NCBI GenBank assembly: GCA_964016885.1 | Contig: OZ024746.1 | Coordinates: 54,312,001-54,376,000, forward strand | Length of the DNA stretch: 64,000 bases | Reading direction: 5' to 3' | DNA from: Eledone cirrhosa | Lineage: Eukaryota | Shown: one piece after another, positions 3,996 to 59,460 of the stretch | How the letters are laid out: every line of letters starts with the position of its first letter | Numbering within the stretch: position 1 is the first letter of the stretch | Notes under the pieces: generated by a model | Seen by the model: the letters and a program-made list of their open reading frames with translations, nothing else | Told to the model about the DNA's origin: nothing | Databases searched by the model: none | Program-made: the position numbers and the translations under genes

Positions 3996-4447
3996 AAGCA
4001 AACAGATATTTAATTTGTTGGTAATTCAACAAATATATTTATAACAGATTCGAAGCACTCGACAAGTTTTCTGGAGTATAATATCAATAATATTAATAAA
4101 TGGAAAACTATATTTATATTTATAAAACCATATTTATTCTTTTATATATATTTCAAGGGTACCAAAACTTTGATACGCCCTCATCAGATAAAATGCAAAG
4201 TTTGTTTTATAAATATTGACATACCCAGGAATGACACCTTAACGGTTCAAGTTTCTCCTGGATAGACTATCCAGGAGAAACTTGAACCGTTAAGGTGTCA
4301 TTCCTGGGTATGTCAATATTTATAAAACAAACTTTGCATTTTATCTGATGAGGGCGTATCAAAGTTTTGGTACCCTTGAAATATATATAAAAGAATAAAT
4401 ATGGTTTTATAAATATAAATAAAGTTTACCATTTATTAATATCATTG

Positions 4448-30352: not shown

Positions 30353-30404
<52 letters not shown>

Positions 30405-30657
30405 TACACGAGTGCGTATGATTGTGTATAGAAGATTATATTGATAAAAGGAATTCCAACTCTGTCTGATTTACTCGTTTTATTTACAATCCTTTAAAAT
30501 GATAATGGTATTAGAATGAAATAGTATGGTAGAATATTAAGTGTTAATTAAACAAGTACTTTCATGCTTTCGCAATCTTAAGGTTCATATCCTGTGGTGA
30601 CAGTCAAGTTTGCAATTTTCAACTTTGTTTGCAAACTTGACTGTCACCACAGAATAG

Positions 30658-30694
30658 GAACCTGAAGATTGCGAAAGCATGAAAGTACTTGTTC
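30658..30694 (+). ncRNA. Minimal type I hammerhead ribozyme in fold-back 30441-30815
   Basis: gaac-CTGAAGA-ttgcgaaagcat-GAAA-gtac-TT-gttc; the mirrored arm has a mutated core (CTTAAGA). Confidence 0.75.
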
Positions 30695-31122
30695 AATTAA
30701 CACTTAACATTTAATATTCTACCATACTATTTCATTCTAATACCATTATAATTTAAAATGATTGTAAATAAAACAAGTAAATCAGGCAAAGTTAAGTTGG
30801 AATACCTTTTATTAATATATATATATAAGTTGTAATAAAATGAAAACGAAATTTCATTTCTCACTCTTTGTACGGCACTTACTTAAATGTAAGTATGTAT
30901 GTATACGTACATACATATATGTATACAGACGTACAGTAGCATGCATATATATATATATATGTATATACATACAGGTACACATACATATATGTACGTATCA
31001 GTTTAGCGGACGCTTGTTATAACGCCCGCTTTGTTCGTTTGTAAACAAACTGAACAGCCTGAATTTATGCAGTACGGTGTTAAGGCAACCACGTCACCTT
31101 TTTGTTCAACACTGACACAGGA

Positions 31123-31165
31123 ACGATGTACTAGTTTCAAGCTTGTTAGCTATCATCAGCACCGT
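31123..31165 (-). ncRNA. Type I hammerhead ribozyme, monomer 1
   Basis: Minus: acggtg-CTGATGA-tagctaacaagctt-GAAA-ctag-TA-catcgt. Confidence 0.85.
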
Positions 31166-31397
31166 ATACCCTTCTGCCAGATGGTTGAACGTTCAAAAGT
31201 ATATACTTTCCTTATGAAAATTAACGGCTGAGCAGCCTAATTTGCATATCGAGTGAGTTCGGCCAGGCGTACCGAAAACGATAAGTCGTAATAAAATGAA
31301 AACGAAATTTCATTTCTCACTCTTAGTACGGCACTTACTTAAATGTAAGTATGTATGTATACGTACATACATATATGTATACAGACGTACAGTAGCA

Positions 31398-31439
<42 letters not shown>

Positions 31440-31590
31440 CAGGTACACATACATATATGTACGTATCAGTTTAGCGGACGCTTATTATAACGCCCGCTTT
31501 GTTCGTTTGTAAACGAACTGAACAGCCTGAATTTATGCCGTACGGTGTTAAGGCAACCACGTCACCTTTTTGTTCAACACTGACACCGGA

Positions 31591-31633
31591 ACGATGTACT
31601 AGTTTCAAGCTTGTTAGCTATCATCAGCACCGT
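31591..31633 (-). ncRNA. Type I hammerhead ribozyme, monomer 2
   Basis: Identical to 31123-31165. Confidence 0.85.
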
Positions 31634-31804
31634 ATACCCTTCTGCCAGATGGTTGAACGTTCGAAAGTATATACTTTCCTTATGAAAATTAACGGCTGAA
31701 CAGCCTAATTTGCATATCGAGTGAGTTCGGCCAGGCGTACCGAAAACGATAAACTAATACGCTAAACTGATACGTACATATATGTATGTGTACCTGTATG
31801 TATA

Positions 31805-31847
<43 letters not shown>

Positions 31848-31900
31848 GCATGCTACTGTACGTCTGTATACATATATGTATGTACGTATACATACATACT

Positions 31901-31977
<77 letters not shown>

Positions 31978-32604
31978 CAACAGTCATAGAGGACATATAT
32001 ATATAATCATAGTCACAGATACATATATGAGAGTTGGCTACCTTCAATGGTGTGGCTCGATGAGTGAATGAATAAAACAAATAATTATCAATCAGAGCAA
32101 TATAAAATCATAAGTTTGAAGAATAGTATGACAACATTTATTCAATTCTTTTTTCTTAGACTGTAGAAATTAACTAGATAAATAATCATTTAAACGCTAG
32201 TTAATTTCTATGAAAAGATTCAGGACCCCGACGGCTGAACTCCGGCCGTTTCGACAGTTAGATCCGAACTTGTCAACAACCACCCCGCAGCGGCATGTAT
32301 GTGGCTCACACACGCAGTGGGCAAGGCGTTGGGCTACACCGATCTTCTCTTTATTTTTAAACAGCAGAAAGTATCTTACCATACCCTCTGGTGCGTTATG
32401 ATCCACCTGGTATCTTACCACACCCTTTTCGTTTGTATACATATATGTTAGGTATGTAAGTACAGTTACGGTCGGCACGCCGTACGAATCACTCAATGCT
32501 GTTACGAGCTCCGTCTCTCATGGGTTATTATTCAAGAGTTAAGGTGGCTGTAGTGTGCAGAATATAATATCTCTCTCTCTCTCTCTCGCTCTCCTATATA
32601 TATA

Positions 32605-32925
<321 letters not shown>

Positions 32926-33045: not shown

Positions 33046-34411
<1,366 letters not shown>

Positions 34412-43863: not shown

Positions 43864-45795
43864 TTTCTTTATTAACCACAAGGGTTTACATAAAGTAGAC
43901 ATTAAGGACAGTGCAGGACAATGCAGGACGGTACAAATGGGCATTTCTGCGTGTAAAAAACAAAAACAGAGGATGTAACAAAAAATAACAATGAAAAATT
44001 CCCCAATAGGGGGGAGACTTCGGAGGGACATTTGTGGAGAAAGCCCAGTAAAAAGCCACAAGGACCCTGACCACCAAGGCAAGTGCCCTCTCCCAGTTTT
44101 CCACCTTTAATTTACAGATATATACTCAGAGTAGGCCCATTCACTCGGGCCATTCTTGCTTCTCTCACCCATCTTTCAACAAAATGCTGGGAAGAGAGCA
44201 CTTCCCCCTCTACGCTGATTTTCCTTTTCAAATGAAATTTGAAAAAGTCAATCAGAGCATCACCGAAGAGGTAAGTGCTCGTCTTCAGCCCTTTCAAACG
44301 TGTCCACCATACTATCTCTTTCGCCATGGCCACCAGACAGATAAAAACTGCCTGCCCTTCCCGGCTAAAGGAGGAGGGCGGGGCAATCCTCACGATGGAC
44401 TCAGATGATAGCCAGATCCGTCCTAAACGCGACAGCAGGTGTTCGACATAAACCCACAAGTCAGCAATTTTCGGACACTGGACGAGTGCGTGCAGGACGG
44501 TTTCGTCGCCCTGCGCGCATCTCGGACATGCCCGGCTGACGGCACCTCCATGCCTGTAGAGTTTATCCCGAACTGGCAAGGCTCCTCGGTAGCACTGCCA
44601 GGCCAGAGATTTCTGGAAGTTGTCCATAGGCCCTGGCCCGAAAGTTCTTCCGAAGAGATTGGCTAGTTGATTTTCGTCGACGCCTAGAGTTTCCCCAAGT
44701 ACGTCGTCGCTCTTCCCCTCCACTAATCCTCTATAGAACGCCGAGGTGGAGTTTCCACCTATCACATTGCCCGATTGGTCGAGGGCTGTGAGCGCCTGAA
44801 GACATTCCAGTCTCCAGGCGCTCCCTCTCGGTCTTCGCTTGACCCAGGACTGCAGCTCTGTCAAGGAAACGAGCTGGGGAAATACGCGTCTAGCAAACGG
44901 CGACCACACCTGATCACCGTCGAGGAAGAGGTGGAGATGTCGTAGCCTGAGCTCGTGCCTGCGCATCATCAGCCACGGCATGCCCAGCCCTCCACGTAGC
45001 GGGTGTTGACAACAGATGGACCGCCTGACCATCGGAGCACGTCCCTTCCACAAAAAGCAAAAGAGCAAACGCTCCAGCGCAGTCAGGCGAGGCTTAGGAC
45101 AAGGTACGACGGTCAGGCGGTAGCAGATGACAGACGCGATGTACGCGTTAGCCACCTCCGCTCGACCTTTCAGGGATAGCTTCCTCTCCGCCCATTTCTG
45201 GGTGAGAGAAGCCACCCTGCTCGTCACCTCGTCCCAGTTTTTGTCCGTCTGGAGGTCCGGACCGAACCAGACCCCTAGCAATTTAACCGGTCCGTCCGTC
45301 CAGCGCCCGACGACGCTGTTGGACGGCATGGACCTGCCTCTCCAGGTGCCGAGCTGTAGGCCCACTGACTTTTCCTGGTTGATCATTGCTCCTGTCACCG
45401 CTTCGTATTCTCTTAGTGTAGTGCCGATCGCCTCGATGTGTTTGGCGTTCGACACCACTACGGTGACATCGTCCGCATATGCTGACACGGATCTTCCGCA
45501 TCCTAGTTCGCACGAGACTCCCCTCAACGTCTCCAGTTTGTGCAGTAATGGCTCGAGAGTCAATACGTACAAGAGGGACGAGAGGGGACATCCTTGGCGG
45601 ACCGAGCGCATGATGTTGAACGGTTCCGACAGGTGACCGTTCACTCTCACCACAGAGCAGATGTCGCTGTGCATGGCAGCGATCCACCCTCTGAACACGG
45701 GCCCAAAGCCAGCCGCCCTCAGGACTGCCGCTAGGTAACGATGGTCGACCCTATCGAAAGCTTTCGACTGATCTAAATTGATCAAGGACCCACCC
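43862..45795 (-). mobile_element. 5'-truncated L1/Tx1-clade LINE inserted in (TAA)n
   Basis: Flanked by (taa)n at 43808-43861 and 45796-45824; 3' UTR ends cccttgtggttaataaagaaatca-(tta)n. Confidence 0.9.
44112..45785 (-). CDS. ORF2 fragment: reverse transcriptase plus C-terminal CCHC finger (L1/Tx1)
   Basis: LDQSKAFDRVDH, SVRQGCPLSSLLY, AYADD, CPRCAQGDETVLHALVQC; 557 codons open. Confidence 0.9.
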   Translation of the reverse strand: MINLDQSKAFDRVDHRYLAAVLRAAGFGPVFRGWIAAMHSDICSVVRVNGHLSEPFNIMRSVRQGCPLSSLLYVLTLEPLLHKLETLRGVSCELGCGRSVSAYADDVTVVVSNAKHIEAIGTTLREYEAVTGAMINQEKSVGLQLGTWRGRSMPSNSVVGRWTDGPVKLLGVWFGPDLQTDKNWDEVTSRVASLTQKWAERKLSLKGRAEVANAYIASVICYRLTVVPCPKPRLTALERLLFCFLWKGRAPMVRRSICCQHPLRGGLGMPWLMMRRHELRLRHLHLFLDGDQVWSPFARRVFPQLVSLTELQSWVKRRPRGSAWRLECLQALTALDQSGNVIGGNSTSAFYRGLVEGKSDDVLGETLGVDENQLANLFGRTFGPGPMDNFQKSLAWQCYRGALPVRDKLYRHGGAVSRACPRCAQGDETVLHALVQCPKIADLWVYVEHLLSRLGRIWLSSESIVRIAPPSSFSREGQAVFICLVAMAKEIVWWTRLKGLKTSTYLFGDALIDFFKFHLKRKISVEGEVLSSQHFVERWVREARMARVNGPTLSIYL

Positions 45796-45826
<31 letters not shown>

Positions 45827-46789
45827 GCACGAGGTGGTAGAAGGTCATGAAATCGCTCCCGTAAGTTTTTGATTTTTAACATATTTGAATCAATTGTGAA
45901 ATAACAATTCTTAGTACAAATGTTGCATAAACCACCGAATCAGGTCCCATAAAGTTTCGGATCCATATTATATTGTTGTATCGCTCAAATATTCAATTTT
46001 GTATTATATATTTTGTATTCAAAAAAAGAAAATGGTTATAAATGGGAAAAAAAAACACCCTCTGTCTACACTATATAGAACAGCCATATAACAGCAATTT
46101 CACGAACACCAGAAACTTGATACACCACCTATCCCATCACACTAAATATAACAGCCAGATAACGGCAATTTCACCAGCATCATAATAATAATTACTATTA
46201 TTATTGTCTCAAATTTAAAAAAAAATGTTTAATTCCAATTTTACGGGATATGTCAACACAAAATATAATAAAAATATATATTAAACATACGAACACAAAC
46301 TCATAGATACTACATATCAGTAACCACAACGCCACGGCTGCCACCACCCCACCCCATCCATCATTGCTACCACTATCCCATCGTCGCCGCCACCACTCCT
46401 TCAATGCTACCACCACTATTCCCCTGTTAACTTGAGAGAGAAAGGGGAAGGTGGCGGTATCACTAGACAAGGGAGAGGCTAGCAAAAGATATAAATAGAT
46501 TGACTTAGTGACCTGGCCACCGGCCAAACGTCAACACCAACAACTATGGGACTGCTGGCTCACCCCTTCCTCACCAACAATATAAACAGCCCCGGCACCA
46601 CCACCGACATAGCCAACAACAATAACAGCCAACTACAACAAAAAGTATATTATATTATTGTAATGCACTGGGTGATTGCGGGCCTTGTGCCTGGAGTGGA
46701 GACAATTATTAATAATTTCATTCTTAAGCCACGCAATGCTCACATTAAGGAACCACTCATGATAATAACAATTTAAAAAAACAACAAAA

Positions 46790-49700
46790 CGAAAACCCCG
46801 TGACCAAGAAATACCGGGATGGCGGCCGGCGGGGAATAGCCGTGACTCTAGGGGAGAACGACCCCTCTAGTCTTGGTTGACACTCGTTCTAGAAGTGGTA
46901 ACACGAAATGATTACCCCTTGGCGGATAAGGATAAAACGCGACAAAATAAAGTAAATGTCTAATGATAAAATCTCATACCGGATCGGCCGTCACCCGGGT
47001 AAAAAAGGGCCGCGTCCCTCAGAGAGGAACCAGACTGGGGTCGAAAAATCAGCTAATGGTTCAAACCTTCCCATCACTTCGGAGCTGGAGACCTCCCATA
47101 ACCGGAATACTCCTACTGTTGGCCCTCCATGCTCACCACCAAGAAATCCAAAGAAAAAGAGAGAAAAATGGTCAAGGGAAGATAATAAAGAAGTCCTTGA
47201 GGCTTTCTACACTGCCATGTACTATCCATCAAATACATCGAATACAGAACAGACATATATCAACTGGAAAAAGAAACATCCCGAAAACAGAGGCTATATT
47301 GACAGTAACAAACTAGCCAATATACGAAGAAATATTGTAAGAAAAAAGTTACTAATTGATATAAAAATTGATCAGATCAAGCTATTAGCACAAAGTCAGC
47401 GAAGGGAAAATGAAACATGTGTCAGTGAAAACGAGGTAAACTGTAACACTTCGAATCCCAGGGTTGGGGCGGAATCACTGGCAACAGAACAAATTAAAGA
47501 AAGGATCGAAAAAGTGGAGGGAGTGCATGCTCAGGATGAAACTCCAAATGAAAATAATGAGATCGTAAATGATAAAGAAATGAATGAGAATGAACTTGCC
47601 AACTTGAAGGATGAAATTATGATCGAATGGATGAAAATGAAAGAATCTGACATGGGGCAACGAGACACCCTCCCTAAGATCCAGAACTCCAAACAGAACC
47701 AAAAATAATACACAAGACTATCATAATTCTCAAAAACATTATCATCCCAAACAAACTAAACATTACTGATTTAAATCATCTCTATTATGCATCGGCTAAA
47801 GTCACCACTCACTTATGTGGAGTGAAGATGAAAAAACAAAGGAATTCCCACAAGAAATCTACTTGGCAAAAGAACATCAATCGCCAAATAAACCTTCTCC
47901 GATCTGACATAGAAATTTTAACAAACTATAAAGTAGGTGAACATGTTAAACAAACTAAACTTAGAAAATTGAAAGAAAAAGTACAGTATAAAATCAACAT
48001 GTGACATAGACATGCTGATAGAAATAATCAAGCAAAAAGTGTCGGCCAAAGCTGCTCGTATAAGGCGCTTTGAAAAACCATCTAGATTCTATAAGGACAA
48101 TAATATGTTTAAAAACAACCAAAGAAACTTCTACAGAAAAATTGGTAAGTCAACAATAACTGCTAAATCAATACCACCCAAGGAGGAAGTGCAAGAATTC
48201 TGGGAAAAGATCTGGGCCGAAGAAAAAGTTCATAACATACATGCCCCATGGATAGACAGACAAATGAAAGATACAGCTCACCTTGAAATATGGGAAAATA
48301 TAACAGTTGTACAGTTGCGCCTGGCTCTAAGAAAAACCAGCAAATGGAAATCCCCAGGTAAAGACACAATACAAAACTTTTGGATAAATGCCTTCACAGA
48401 GTCTCATGAGCTGTTAGCCCAACTTTACAATGAAATAGTTAAGGAGCCAGAAAAGATACCATCATGGCTAGTTAACGGCATTACATTCCTGCTTCCGAAG
48501 AATGATGAGACAAACAATCCCCAAAATTACAGACCGATAACTTGCTTGACCACAATGTATAAAATTTTAACATCAGTCCTAACTGAATACACATATGACC
48601 ACCTGATAACAAATGACCTATTTCCCATTGAGCAGAAAGGGTGTAAACGAGGCTCATATGGCTGTAAGGATCAGCTTCTGGTTAACAAAATGATACTGGA
48701 AGATTGTCATAATAGACACAAAAATCTATCGATTGCTTGAATAGATTATAAAAAAAGCATTCGATAGTTTGCCACACAGTTGGATTGAAAAATGTTTAGA
48801 GATTTTCAAAATAACCCCCGTTGTCAGGAGGTTTTTGTCATTCAGTATGAAGACATGGAAAACGACACTCCTTTTGAATAGTGAAACAAAATCACTGGAA
48901 GCTGGAGAAGTTAATATTAATTGTGGAATTTTTCAGGGTGACTCTTTATCACCGCTTTTATTCTGCATCGCACTTATACCATTAAGTAAAATGCTCAATG
49001 AAACAAAACATGGATATAAAGTCTATGACAAAACCATTAGTCACCTGTTCTACATGGATGACCTGAAACTATTTGCAAAAAATGATGAACAATTGCAAGG
49101 GCTATTATCCACTGTGAAGCAGTTCAGTGATGACATTAAAATGGAGTTTAGACTAGATAAATGCGCCAAAGCAACGTTCACCAGAGGAAAGCTGCTGAAG
49201 AGTTCAGACATTAATCTTGATCGGGGGAACGTGATAAGAGAACTTGATCAAGAAAAAACTTACAAATATCTAGGTGTTTGTGAAGGAGACGGAATCAAGC
49301 ACTCGACAATGAGGGAAAGGATAAGGAAGGAATGTTACTGCAGAGTAAGAGCAATCTTAAGAACGGAATTGAATGCAAGGAATAGGATCGATGCCATAAA
49401 CACGCTTGCCATACCAGTAGTAACCTACAGTTACAATGTCATCAACTGGTCAAGCACAGAGATCCGTAGGCTCGATACAAAAATTCGAAAATTCTTAACC
49501 ATGCACAGAATGCATCACCCTAAGGCAGATATAGATAGAATATATTTCCCTAGGAAAGAAGGAGGACGTGGGTTAATCCAGTTAGATATTGCGTTGAAAA
49601 CTGCAACAATTGTATTATCTACATATCTAAGGGAATCACATGATTGGATGATCAAACTCGTTTTGAAACACGAAAGCATCAAAAGATCATATTCCATTAC

Positions 49701-50769
49701 AAAAGATGCACAAAGATACAGTAATGGACTACAAATTTCAGAAGTCCCATTTACTGCTGAAATGGAAAACACAGAAAAAGCAAAGCAGGTAAAAGTAACT
49801 GCAAAGAAAGAACTGCTACAGAAACTGGCTAAGAAATGGCAAGAAGAGCCTCTGTATGGAAAATACCCAGAGCGAGCTAACAATCCTGATGTTGACAAAA
49901 CTTTAACCCATCAGTGGTTGGCATCCTCTGGACTGAAATCGGAGACTGAAGGACTGATTATATCGGCACAAGATCAGTGTCTGCCAACAAAAAATTACCA
50001 AGCCAACATAATAAAAAATGGGTGCAGCCCATTATGCCGTGTATGCAAAAAACAACCAGAGACCATTGACCATATAATTTCAATGTGCATTCCTATAGCT
50101 CCAACCGAATACCTAAACAGGCATGACAGAGCTGCACAATACATACATTGGATAATGTGTAAGCATTTTGACCTGCCCCATCAAAAGAATTGGTGGGAGC
50201 ATCAACCACCTCCCATACTTGAAAAAGATCACATCTCAATCTTGTGGAACTTTAGCATCCAAACAGACCGAAAAATAGATGCAAATAGATCTGATATAAT
50301 ATTGAAGGACTTTCAAAAGAGGGTATGCCTGCTAATTGATATGTCTGTTCCAATAGACAAGAATGTATCTATAAAAACATTTGAAAAATTGAGCAAGTAT
50401 AAGGACCTGGAGATAGAAATTGGAAAAATGTGGAAATTGAGAACTAAAACAATACCAGTGGTTGTAGGCGCTCTGGGAATGATACCTAAGGGGTCTAATG
50501 ATTACTTATCGCAAATCCCAGGAAACCCGCGTATAGGAGAAATACAAAAGATAGTACTAATGGGAACTGCCCATATACTAAGGAAGATTCTGTCAATATA
50601 AGTACATCACAAGTCTAAACACTAAAGATGCATGTGTGAATATGTATGATCTTTCTTGAACATGGCAGACCTTGTTGTCTCTTGATGTCACTGGTTGTGA
50701 CTTGGTGATAACTCGTATGAACATAAAGCAAGATAAATGCAACTGTAATAATAATAATAATAATAATAA
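46790..50769 (+). mobile_element. Near full-length R4/Dong-clade non-LTR retrotransposon ending in (TAA)n
   Basis: Structured 5' UTR, single interrupted ORF, 3' UTR and taa tail at 50746-50769. Confidence 0.92.
46956..50601 (+). pseudogene. RT + CCHC + restriction-like endonuclease ORF, broken near 47708, 48004 and 48740-48756
   Basis: WKSPGKD, NYRPITCL, GIFQGDSLSPLLF, HLFYMDDLK, CRVC...HIISMC, RHD, NRSDIILKD...LIDMSVP...EKLSKY. Confidence 0.92.
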
Positions 50770-53700
50770 TGCAAGAGGAGAGACAAACTGGTCTTGCCAT
50801 GGGATGGATAGACTACAAAAAGGTATTTGACATGGTGCCTCATTCTTGGATCACCAAAAGCCTAGAGATCTTCAAGGTGGCAGATAACATCAGACAGTTG
50901 TTGGGCAAAAGTATGAAGTCCTGGGAAACAGAGTTAACATCAGCTGGAGAATCCTTGGGAAGCGTGAAGATCAAGAGAGGTATCTTCCAGGGAGATAGTC
51001 TGTCCCCTCTGTTGTTTGTCCTTGCCATGATGCCCCTGACCAGTGTACTGCGAAATGTGAGAGCAGGATACAGGTTGGGAAAGGGAAGGCTTACCATCAA
51101 TCACCCCCTCTTCATGGACGATCTTAAGCTCTTCGAGAAGAGTGAGAAGGAGTTGGATGAGCTTGTTGACACTGTCCGTATTTTCAGCAATGATATATGT
51201 ATGCAATTTGGTATTAGTAAGTGTGGAGTCCTTGTGATGAACTGGGGTAAATTGAGCAGAAGTAACGGAATCCAGGTACCAACAGGTGAGATGATAAAGG
51301 AAATTGACACTGAAGAAGGATACAAGTATTTGGGTGTTCTGGAGGCTGATGACATCAAGAACAAAAAAATGAAGGAATTGATAAGAACTGAATACATTCG
51401 GAGAGTGAATGCTGAAATAAATAATACCTGGAACAAAGATACGGCCATTGAGGAGATGAATGCTGACGGGCGAGGACAAGATTTGGTTGATATCCTAAAC
51501 TTAGTGGTAGATGAATTGAACAATGATAGTGGGAAACCTATGAACCTAAGATTTGTAGACAGGAAACAGTTAAAAGAAACAACAGCTAAGGTAAACAAAG
51601 TCATCCCATACCTTGAGGCGAGGAGCCTTCACCAGTGCAACAATATCCTCAAAGCAACAGCAAATGCGGTGAGGAAATTACTTGGTATAAAAGCGAGAGG
51701 AAACAACAAACAAGAAAGATCAGAGCCTTGGTGGAAGAAACGACTGAGTGGTCAAATCAGGGAAATGAGAAATGACATTGGAAAGCTTGAGTCCCTACTG
51801 AATGGGACACTAAAAATAGACTGGAAATAAAGTACAAAACTAGGAGGAAAAAGCTAAATATTATCATAGAGGAACTGAAGCTACGCATTGTAGCAAAGAG
51901 TGCAAAAATTAGGCGATACGAGAGCAGAGTCAGTCAGTATAGACAGAACCGTATGTTTGACAACAACCAGAAGATGCTGTTTGGACAGCTTGAGGTGAAA
52001 GAAAGAGGCAACGACTTGATCCCTGAGGATGAACAAACTAAAACATTCTGGAGAGGAATATGGGAGCGGGATGTTAAACATAATGACCAGGCAGTGTGGA
52101 TTGAGACAGTACAGAAGTAGATTAGTGAACAGGCACACCAACAAACTGACTTGAGTATCACAGTTGAAACCCTTAAGGGGCAGGCCAAAAAACTAACCAA
52201 CTGGAAATCACCAGGCCCAAATGGTGTGCAGGGGTATTGGATTAAAAATATAACATCCCTCCACCCGGAACTGACAACCATGTTAAATGACTACTTGATG
52301 TCAGGTGAGGTACCAGAGTGGTTGACAAAAGGTACCAGAGTTCTGGTAATGAAGGACCGAATCAAGGGTAATGATGTTACCAACTATAGACCTATCACAT
52401 GTCTGTCCGTAATGTGGAAACTGTTGACAAGCATTATGTCTGAGGAAATCTACCATCACCTCCACACAAACAACTTGTTACCGGACGAACAGAAAGGATG
52501 CCGAAAGAAGTCCCGTGGTACAATGGACCAGTTACTTATTGATAAGATGGTAATGAGGAATTTCAAGAGGAGACACACTGGTCTTGCCATGGGATGGATA
52601 GACTACAAAAAGGCATTTGAATGGGGCCTCATTCTTGGATCACCAAAAGCCTAGAGATCTTCAAGGTGGCAGATAACATCAGACAGTTGTTGGGCAAAAG
52701 TATGAAGTCCTGGGAAACAGAGTTAACATCAGCTGGAGAATCCTTGGGAAGCGTGAAGATCAAGAGAGGTATCTTCCAGGGAGATATTCTGTCCCCTCTG
52801 TTGTTTGTCCTTGCCCTGATGCCCCTGACCATTATACTGCGAAAAGTGAGAGCAGAATACAAGTTGGGAAAGGGAGAGCTTACCATCAATCACCTCCTCT
52901 TCATGGACGATCTTAAGCTCCCCGGGAAGAGCGAGATGGAGTTGGATGTGCTTGTTGACACTGTCCGTATTTTCAGCAATGTATGCAATTTGGTATTAGT
53001 AAGTGTGGAGTCCTTGTGATGAAGAGGGGTAAATTGAGCAGAAGCAACGGAATCCAGGTACCAACAGGTGAGATGATAAAGGAAATTGACACTGAACAAG
53101 GATACAAGTATTTGGGTGTTCTGGAGGCTGATGATATCAAGAACAAAAAAAATGAAGGAATTGATAAGAACTGAATACATTCGTAGAGTAAGGAGCGTAT
53201 TAAAGTCAATCTGAACAGTAGGAATGCCATAAGTGCAGTAAATTTCCGAGCTGTGTCTATTATTAGGTACAGTGCGGGAATTCTGAGATGGAATGTTTCT
53301 GAACAAAAAGAAATGGATAGGAAGACTAGGAAGCTATTGACTATCTGCAACATGTTCCACAAGAGGAGTGATGTCGATAGACTCTACTTAAGGAGATTTG
53401 AAGGTGGAAGAGGTCTTATCAGCATAGAGGACTGTGTTCAGATGGAGAAAAACAACCTACACAAATACGTGACTAATAGTAAGGAGCCAATGCTCAGAAC
53501 TGTACTGAAGGAGAGGACAATAGACTAGGGATGTCCAAGGAGGAAATAACAACAAGGAGAAAGAGCAGCCTTCAGGAAAAATCCCTTCATAGGACCTTCT
53601 TTGAGAAAACTGAATTCAGATATACACAGACATGGAACTGGTTGAAAAGAGGAGACCTTAAAAAGGCTACAGAAGGAATGTTAATGGCTGCGCAAGAGCA

Positions 53701-54425
53701 AGCCCTCAAAACGAAGTGGTTGAAACACCATATTTACAAGGGGGAAGCTAGCCCACTGTGCAGGATCTGTGGAGAGAGAGAGGAGACTGTGGCTCACATT
53801 GTATCCGAGTGTAAACACCTAGCCCAGACTCACGATAAGGGCTGGAGACATGATGTGATGGGCAGGGTGATCCACTGGCACCAATGCAAAGTAAACAATT
53901 TACCACATTCTGAGAAGTGGTATGAGAATAAGCCAGAGTCGGTGATAGAAAACGATCAGGTGAAGGTGCTGTGGGATTTTAGGATACAGACGGACAAGAA
54001 ACTGGAACACAATAAACCTGACCTGGTGGTTTTGGACAAAGAAAAAAAGATCGTGCCTGATTGTGGATGTGGCCTGCCCATTCGACACGAGAGTGCAAGA
54101 GAAGGAGAGGGAGAAAATTAACCGATACCAGGACTTAAAGTGGGAGGTAAAAAGGATTTGGAACTGCCATGAAGTCAAATTGGTCCCGATTGTCATAGGC
54201 GCACTAGGTACTATCGCAAAAAGTTTCCAGGGATGGTTAAAGAAAATTGGCCCCTTCACGCTTTTTGGAACGCTTCAAAAGGCATGCTTGCTGGGAACAG
54301 CAAGAACCCTCCGATACGTCCTGAATATCTGAGGCTGCTGGTAGTTGCTTGATATTCATTTCAACAAACTTTCCAGTTAACGAACATCAATGAGTGAGAC
54401 TCAAAGAACAATAATAATAATAATA
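50770..54425 (+). mobile_element. Second R4/Dong family element, 5'-truncated and rearranged, directly after the TAA tail of the first
   Basis: WKSPGPNGV, GIFQGD, FMDDLK, CRICGEREETVAHIVSEC, RHD, NKPDLVVLD, DVACPFD, EKINRY; ends 54332 then 3' UTR and (taa)n. Confidence 0.9.
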
Positions 54426-54443
54426 ATAATGATAATAATAATA

Positions 54444-54555
<112 letters not shown>

Positions 54556-54567
54556 CATACATATATA

Positions 54568-55122
54568 TATAAAAATTGAGATGACCAGAACAAACGAACA
54601 TTAAACAATACCTTAAATAAATTAAAAAATGATTTACATATCTACCTGTTCATAATGCTATAACCGGCGGTTTCGCTTTACAAAAGATTAGAGATTCAGA
54701 GAATTTCTAACGGAAAAGTAAAGTTCATCAGATAGCTATTTCGATCCTATAGGACTAAGTCCCACAGCCTGCAAATATAATGCCAACTACCAGCTCGTAT
54801 GAGTTATGGCCGTTAAAGTGACCCACGTGAACTGGCGGCTAGTGAAAGCGGGAATATTACAGACGCGTTGATGGATTTGCTGCTAATAAAATAGCAGTAA
54901 GCAACAAGGAACTTTTTTTCTCTACATAGATTGGAGAATATATAAAATGAGGTAAATATCACTCTGATACCTAAGTACCCATAGAGGTATATAGGGTGTA
55001 TATAATATAATTGTTGTTTAATGGTACTAAATTGAGATACCAGAACTATAAAAATTGAGATGAGCAAAACAAACAAACATTAAACAATCCTTTAAATAAA
55101 TAAAAAAAATGATTTAAATATC
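54568..55122 (-). mobile_element. Terminally redundant ~479-bp HHR element related to 34800-35305
   Basis: 54568-54642 repeats at 55047-55122; shares atggtactaa.ttgagataccagaac with 34736-34760. Confidence 0.75.
54657..54736 (-). ncRNA. Type I hammerhead ribozyme
   Basis: Minus: gctat-CTGATGA-actttac...gtaaagc-GAAA-ccgccgg-TT-atagc. Confidence 0.75.
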
Positions 55123-55275
55123 ATAATTGTAAAAGATGAATTGAGTGGGAGAGGTGGAGGAGGTGATCGTGGAAATTTGGTTTATACCTGTTATATATAT
55201 ATATAACAGGTATAAACCAAATTCCAACGATCACTCAACCATCTCTCCCACTCAATTCATCTTTTAAAATTATGA
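55121..55275. repeat. Inverted repeat (~70-bp arms) centred on (TA)n
   Basis: tcataatt...ggtttatacctgt-(ta)n-acaggtataaacc...aattatga. Confidence 0.85.
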
Positions 55276-55731
55276 TCAAATGGTGGTCAACGCTCTGATC
55301 GCCCCGGGAACCCGGCGGACAGAATAGAGTAGGCATTTCCCCAAGAAAAAATAAAATATCATGCTCATTAACAAAATTGTCCCCGTGAATCTAACTCACG
55401 ACCATACGAACGTGTGCAAAATACCCTAATGAGCAAACCATGACCCTTCAGAGTTCTAGATATGTTGCTATAATTAATGCGGAGAAGTCAAATGTATGAT
55501 TAAAATACATTAACTCATATACCCATAATACCGCATAATATAGTAAAATATAATATGTATGTGTGAGAGGGCCTCGACGAGACTGTTTGCCCTTCTAGAA
55601 ACAGTAGCTTGATACATATCAGAACCCATCCAACCATCTGTTAAAATAGGTTTTCCTGTCATAGAAATAAAACGGAATTGTTATGCCTTCACCTATATGC
55701 TATATAATAAAACTTTGTGTAATTCTATCAT

Positions 55732-57443
<1,712 letters not shown>

Positions 57444-59410: not shown

Positions 59411-59460
59411 TTGGTTGCCCTGATGAGTCCTTAATAGGACGAAACATTGTCGGCTAATAA
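59411..59460 (+). ncRNA. Type I hammerhead ribozyme
   Basis: gcc-CTGATGA-gtcc-ttaata-ggac-GAAA-cattG-TC-ggc; canonical core, GUC site. Confidence 0.8.

Follow-up and report, generated by a model that had tools for sequence, protein, structure and literature searches.

The 64,000 nucleotides of the Eledone cirrhosa genome analysed here (the window) contain, at about 31 kb, two closely similar units in tandem, each with a hammerhead ribozyme motif, beside a shorter inverted copy. The question that this locus raises is what kind of element it represents and by what route such an arrangement becomes inserted in a genome. Judged by its sequence, the element is a non-LTR retrozyme and a non-autonomous Penelope-like element, with self-cleavage and a circular RNA as predictions, and the locus itself is an unexceptional member of a family present in very many copies.

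Structure of the locus

Tandem Repeats Finder delimits a repeat at 30825-31752, with a period of 468, 2.0 copies and 95% matches. Both units read along the minus strand. The upstream (5') unit (31281-31748, 468 bp) serves as the reference and is numbered u1 to u468 along that strand, starting from u1 at 31748, and the downstream (3') unit (30825-31280, 456 bp) ends at u468, the 'long' 3' site, where it abuts a short TA tract; positions 31749-31752 are the final 4 bases of another truncated unit. Nine substitutions and one 12-bp indel in the TA run separate the two units, in agreement with a previous sequence-only reading of this DNA, which had described two head-to-tail monomers differing by few substitutions and by a change in TA length. 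On the 5' side lies an inverted, 5'-truncated arm (31760-31905, plus strand; u273-406) that ends at the 'short' 3' site and abuts the right-hand (TA)n target tract (31906-31976); the same reading had placed an inverted segment here, and the arm runs 2 bases past the end assigned to it. The 62 nt between the two 3' end sites (u407-468), which we term the tail, are present at the 30825 end only (30825-30886, minus strand). The two units contain no open reading frame of at least 100 aa, and the RT and GIY-YIG frame of an autonomous Penelope-like element was not found in retrozyme units. Read depth over the repeat is high in three runs, the contigs coming from one sample of unrecorded kind.

Several other repeats share the window. 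A palindromic element adjoins (TA)n at 32227-32269 and 32741-32830 and is found beside TA tracts at other loci as well (L217, L227, L229), a direct repeat of about 165 bp occupies 33092-33255 and 33832-34000 (740-745 bp apart, 97-98% alike), and 44112-57443 contains several disrupted frames for reverse transcriptase (RVT_1, zf-RVT), LINE-like in character. Rfam microRNA matches in the window fall below gathering scores and were rejected as TA-repeat noise.

Hammerhead motifs and predicted cleavage

Identical type I hammerhead motifs occupy the minus strand of both units, at 31588-31639 (u110-161) and 31120-31171, with CUGAUGA starting at 31627 (31627-31621) and 31159, that is, at the 468-nt distance originally reported. 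Stem I is formed by 6 bp, a UAU bulge and 3 bp, and stem II by 4 bp beneath a U-U pair, followed by GAAA; the stem III that had been described as palindromic is ACUAGU. Cleavage is predicted after 31597 (u152, GUA) and after 31129, and the two cuts would yield an RNA of exactly 468 nt (31129-31596, minus strand), the product length first proposed, in which stem I and a longer helix may keep the two ends together.

The Rfam score of the motif is weak (HH9, 17.6 bits, E 0.087 for a 331-base stretch, with a gathering score of 52), and the dimer hammerhead was not among the matches listed (150 of 177) in a scan of the whole window. A chance match can be dismissed, since the 31-nt hammerhead core has 10,718 exact matches in the 3.0-Gb genome and its reversed control has 0. 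In 45 of 45 copies (L001-L030), stem II has U-U instead of G-C as its basal pair, a feature absent from the earlier description; the older sister family C (L164-L177) shows C-A at this position and GUU at the cut site. Folding models make stem III unfavourable in the monomer (-2.2 with its single pair, -7.6 without it), and a competing fold that pairs the core CUG to the cleavage side (-9.7) would be 2 kcal/mol more stable and would bury the core. Taken by itself, the hammerhead has no folding advantage over shuffled sequences (z +0.9 to -0.6), and the stem III palindrome could form a 6-bp duplex between two copies. Because of the U-U pair in stem II and of a stem III unable to close in the monomer, self-cleavage is predicted to be weak and dimer-dependent. 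Axolotl ribozymes offer precedents for both features (Cervera and de la Pena 2020, PMC7229834): HHR_Amex2 has U-U at the base of helix II (10.1-11.1) and HHR_Amex1 a one-pair helix III with a palindromic tetraloop, and both are described as cleaving poorly alone and better as dimers. In the axolotl, however, the two weakening features are split between two ribozymes, and here they coincide in one.

Other hammerhead-like sequences are found in the window. A separate and more canonical type I hammerhead lies at 59414-59458 on the plus strand (Rfam Hammerhead_1, 28.6 bits, E 1.8e-5 for a 171-base stretch, gathering score 34), and a second hammerhead-like family (CUGAUGA ... GAAAUAUA) is represented at 4187 (-), 4345 (+), 11995 (+), 14220 (-) and 34459 (+), with the pair at 4187 and 4345 arranged head to head.

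For the unit as a whole, the predicted circular fold reaches -162.8 kcal/mol (z -10 against 40 shuffles), and the linear fold of the part without the TA core is predicted at z -5.3. In 26 representative units of families A, B and C, the share of cells that pair is 94.9%, a measure of the sort that kinship inflates, and changes on both sides occur in 7 of 83 pairs, including a G-U to U-G change in stem I and two long-range helices; these changes are single inherited events, and their count was matched by 36 of 500 shuffles. Covariation thus understood lends modest support to a conserved fold.

An abundant family of dispersed tandems

Three sister families make up the group, and a degenerate tail pattern drawn over them has 26,888 exact matches genome-wide. 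Family B, of about 430 bp, is 77% alike to family A, the family of the dimer, and family C is 84% alike; both were met by chance near GIY-YIG loci and then searched for. Family A was sampled in two ways. The first sample, which takes the 29 top-scoring matches of the query (L002-L030), is biased towards the query's own subfamily. The second comprises 52 stretches around the first 100 exact core matches on contig C1 (L031-L082) and is free of that bias, but requires an exact core. In this second sample, at least two consecutive intact cores are present at 19 of the 52 loci, and the dimer locus is therefore one of very many. Most arms are short, 53 of 72 having one intact core, and arrays reach 7 to 9 units. 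The standing of the dimer as the best candidate, claimed from sequence inspection, finds no support in this count or in its substitutions: each unit here carries 3 private ones in u13-280, and many other copies carry none.

The retrozyme interpretation fares better. Short non-coding tandems dispersed in thousands of copies, one type I hammerhead per unit, a stable predicted fold and compensatory changes in that fold, hammerhead stem I among them, are all features of the family, and all but the last two-sided changes are those by which non-LTR retrozymes are recognized. The retrozymes of coral, mussel and axolotl described by Cervera and de la Pena (2020, PMC7229834) are likewise non-coding tandems of high copy number with a type I hammerhead in each unit and a highly paired predicted circle. 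They differ in size, with units of 170-400 nt as against 430-520 bp and an internal TA palindrome here, and in that their circles have been shown (PMC7229834), whereas the circle of the present family is a prediction. A plant-type LTR retrozyme was rejected, the hammerhead being of type I and not III and the units standing head to tail with no central region.

The insertion footprint

Copies of the family are inserted in (TA)n, and their arms meet head to head within it. At the 52 positionally sampled loci, 30 junctions between arms are head to head (5' to 5') and 1 is tail to tail. The outer 3' ends occupy either u403-410 or the end of the unit, nearly always abutting (TA)n, and the 5' ends are scattered; the two fixed 3' sites lie about 62 nt apart and delimit a tail of 59-62 nt. 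The dispersed, circularly permuted multimers anticipated from the dimer thus exist as dispersed multimers, but not as free permutations, because 3' ends occupy two fixed sites and only the 5' ends vary.

The two ends of an insertion obey a simple rule. Pooling families A, B and C and dropping 6 duplicate loci leaves 67 two-arm junctions, and in 35 of the 36 classed at both ends a long end is paired with a short one (binomial p 5e-10). The 31 unclassed junctions include 13 with a long end and an end lost in the TA core and 4 with a short end and an end of that kind, the rest being broken, cut by the locus edge or otherwise unclassed. The dimer locus follows the rule, with its long end at 30825 and its short end at 31905, although the end-rule script scored it as single-armed. 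The arms of an insertion also share a haplotype: at 35 diagnostic sites in 30 junctions, they mismatch in 1.2% of comparisons against 32% after permutation, and none of 2000 permutations is as low. Either arm can be the longer one, as illustrated by L073 (61 nt for the long arm and 1435 for the short one) and L043 (1379 and 219), and on these grounds an origin of the inverted arm as a fold-back copy of the other was rejected. Within the sample, junctions between arms are never reused from one locus to another.

These regularities bear on the most mundane explanation of the dimer, namely a local tandem duplication, an assembly artefact or a satellite amplified at the DNA level. The TA-rich palindromic DNA around the units would suit such an origin, but thousands of dispersed copies in varied flanks, which also dispose of the single-locus duplication contemplated in the sequence-only reading, together with fixed 3' ends, the one-long-one-short rule and the 9 differences between the two units, leave it with almost no credibility.

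The footprint is instead the full one of Penelope elements, from head-to-head arms to one long and one short end, and the PLE-type integration surmised from the inverted segment is supported by it. Endonuclease-bearing (EN+) Penelope-like elements such as Neptune, Naiad and Poseidon are described as leaving partial tandems with an inverted, 5'-truncated copy at the 5' side, often a tail at one end, and a preference for (TA)n (Craig 2021, PMC8557442), and the present family shows partial tandems with the same kind of inverted copy, a one-ended tail and AT-rich or (TA)n targets. It departs from those elements in having no open reading frame and a tail of 59-62 nt instead of 30-40. The purified Poseidon enzyme is reported to cut and extend both strands, from two internal start sites that define the tail (Frangieh 2024, PMC11167929); the strands showed no difference in start site in that in vitro system, whereas the one-tail rule is near absolute here. 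The accessible part of the account of metazoan retrozymes in PMC7229834 describes neither head-to-head arms nor a tail rule. A link between retrozymes and Penelope was proposed in 2020, and a recent preprint (bioRxiv 10.64898/2026.07.22.740005) reaches our conclusion that retrozymes are non-autonomous Penelope-like elements, for families of 51-972 bp. Its basis, as presented, is co-occurrence and pLTR similarity in 35 species (vertebrates, insects and a coral), and ours is the insertion footprint. We found no report of the counted one-long-one-short rule or of the shared arm haplotype in the accessible literature, and either may be in print.

Coding Penelope-like elements in the same genome

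A coding family is represented directly beside the dimer. Positions 30400-30822 hold a separate element, a stub in which 3' ends of a coding RT and GIY-YIG Penelope-like family (L116, L120, L128) stand head to head, with its tailed end on the left, its untailed end on the right and a TA tract in common with the retrozyme. The genome contains 10,597 GIY-YIG candidates, of which the best 150 were scored, and the long frames encode RT with a C-terminal GIY-YIG domain, preceded in 4 of 5 inspected cases by CX4CX2C, the motif given for Neptune and Nematis (Craig 2021, PMC8557442). In two coding families, the second of which includes the stub, the head-to-head pairs counted within (TA)n (11 of 11 and 10 of 10) have a tail at one end and none at the other, as judged by eye, each pair being taken as one insertion and one tail-to-tail pair and one unclassable pair being left out.

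Stubs of the same geometry are common in the genome, and with one of them next to the dimer, the unit might be regarded as the terminal repeat (pLTR) of a coding Penelope element, left behind as 5'-truncated stubs; retrozymes of Xenopus are said to resemble pLTRs (bioRxiv 10.64898/2026.07.22.740005). The sequences on the 5' side of the units make this very improbable, because in 82 loci they consist of another unit or of an inverted arm, with no common coding continuation seen. The unit shows no homology to 50 GIY-YIG loci, a small sample of the 10,597 candidates, of which the best 150 were scored, and occurs in 3 of them as a separate insertion only; nor has it any sequence similarity to 9 end regions of coding families. 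A rare coding parent may exist among the other candidates, but we retain a separate, non-autonomous element as by far the likelier reading. As to the source of its enzyme, a young coding Penelope-like family (L113:2273-7400, minus strand) has a 938-aa open frame, a variant hammerhead with U3-A8 and a tail of 64 nt, and the closeness of this tail to that of the retrozyme (64 vs 62 nt), the one trait on which the pairing was made, marks it as a candidate partner, which is only a lead.

The template of reverse transcription

If a Penelope-type enzyme copied the retrozyme RNA, the ends and junctions of the copies should tell in what form. Of the 60 5' ends, only 1 comes within 10 nt of the cut site, and this count excludes a template that stops where the ribozyme would cleave. 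Junctions between units lack an indel at the cut site in 163 of 164 cases, which disfavours a template jump between cleaved monomers. Taken together, these counts indicate that the site was intact or religated when reverse transcription passed over it, and 5' ends that ignore the cleavage site imply that the template would have been either a ligated circle or an uncleaved multimer.

Between these two, the evidence is divided. Uniform arrays of 4-7 units are found in many subfamilies, and changes private to a locus are common to all its units in L034, L035 and L080; the predicted helix that would keep the two cut ends together also speaks for a circle. On the other hand, some variants occupy subsets of units in L009, L052 and L053 (the last an older, 9-unit arm), a pattern not expected from a single-unit circle unless conversion followed, and the common haplotype of the arms could also be explained by two RNAs of one source locus or by gene conversion. 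The same element could, with the same two-strand priming, have been copied from uncleaved linear multimers transcribed from tandem source arrays, the hammerhead being weak or late and circles no part of the pathway. Variants confined to some units would follow naturally, weak stems II and III would be no obstacle, and clean junctions and scattered 5' ends fit just as well. The biochemistry of Poseidon leans the same way, in that the purified protein is reported to prefer uncleaved RNA, its main substrate, and to insert hammerhead mutants in vitro with no effect of the mutation (PMC11167929), and 8 of 9 Xenopus retrozyme dimers are described as showing no cleavage (bioRxiv 10.64898/2026.07.22.740005). 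A linear template must nonetheless account for arms that are mostly short and yet include uniform arrays of 4-7 units with private changes throughout, for each of which a long uniform master would be needed; for inter-arm junctions that are not reused among the sampled loci; and for the survival of the hammerhead core and stem I, a two-sided change included, in families that are 77% alike. On this balance we regard the linear multimer as an unlikely, if serious, contender, and favour the circle to a fair degree as the template.

A U6-like element in each unit

Upstream of the hammerhead, each unit contains TATGCAAATTAG (u33-44; 31705-31716 and, in the second copy, 31237-31248, minus strand), a 12-mer that matches three U6 promoters of the same genome and contains, from u34, what we take to be an octamer. 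Forty-two nt past it lies the TATA-like GTATATAC (u75-82; 31667-31674 and 31199-31206, minus strand). The three U6 promoters, which are independent of one another, have TATGC(A/T)AAT(T/G)AG at -77 to -79 and GTATA at -31, with a spacing of 46-48 nt, 4-6 nt more than in the retrozyme. Among A units, 128 of 141 carry the exact 12-mer, as do 15 of 17 C units, and 40 of 49 B units have it with one base changed. The pattern of the 12-mer, which was drawn from those 3 U6 promoters, arises in 8 of 30,000 shuffles, and in 0 of 30,000 with GTATA behind it. None of the 6 that could be anchored among 14 further U6 matches has the 12-mer, which is also absent from all 14 U1 and U2 upstream regions. Local alignment of the unit with eight upstream regions of snRNA genes gave no significant match (best p about 0.05), and in the RNA the 12-mer and the TATA-like element could also pair with each other.

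The predicted start of transcription would lie around u108-111 (about 31640), where the hammerhead begins on its 5' side. Pol III is disfavoured as the polymerase, since the runs of T6-T9 in some young subfamilies (T4 at the dimer locus) would stop it before the second ribozyme. A U1/U2-type (Pol II snRNA) promoter was rejected, as a matrix of host U1/U2 genes (9 promoters) gives -6.1 at the candidate site and its best score in the unit is reached by 152 of 600 shuffles. The U1 and U2 genes themselves (L250-L261, L276, L278-L287) differ from the U6 genes in sharing TCAGT at -56 to -58, together with a TATA-like run around -32. The schistosome Sm-alpha repeats and newt satellite 2 present a comparable arrangement, with a promoter before the hammerhead in each repeat and two repeats needed to regenerate a unit (PMC6765202, PMC2220036); Sm-alpha is reported to use Pol III and newt satellite 2 an snRNA-type Pol II promoter, whereas the element here would be the 12-mer of host U6 with a TATA-like box at shorter spacing. 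A U6-like internal promoter in each unit is a lead and not a result, and we found no report of such an element in a retrozyme in the accessible literature, where one may well be in print.

A proposed mechanism for insertion

The reading that we consider probable is that of a non-LTR retrozyme with an internal promoter and weak, dimer-dependent hammerheads, whose ligated circle would be copied by a Neptune-type Penelope enzyme priming both strands of (TA)n on the same RNA. Transcription would likely proceed from the promoter inside each unit, and the hammerheads would likely cut the RNA to unit length, to be ligated into a circle. On this one RNA, the enzyme would then likely prime both strands of a break in (TA)n, with reverse transcription starting from u468 on one target strand and from u406 on the other. 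We infer that both cDNAs would head towards the 5' side of the RNA, cross the cleavage site with no scar, stop at scattered points and become joined. A circular template would produce arms of several identical units and a one-unit bottleneck in each lineage, and the dimer would be the smallest copy able to yield a full unit again, having in succession a promoter, a cut, a unit and a cut.

It is tempting to go further and suggest that a dimeric enzyme working on a single RNA circle might make all Penelope-type insertions, its subunits engaging different start sites and different (TA)n strands and chasing each other round the circle, and that the retrozyme supplies the circle by way of a promoter element borrowed from U6. 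This is a speculative proposal that we hold possible but doubtful. Were it true, thousands of young copies would directly record the mechanism of Penelope integration.

More generally, the footprint of this family links two questions, that of the enzyme that mobilises animal retrozymes and that of the tandem and inverted Penelope insertions with a one-sided tail. It sets countable rules for any mechanism: a long end is paired with a short one, the arms share one haplotype, and either arm can be the longer. Metazoan retrozymes seemed to lack promoters according to a 2020 review, and the U6-like element would be a testable exception, with precedents in newt and schistosome. Finally, the predicted 468-nt RNA would offer a small substrate on which the reaction may be reconstituted.
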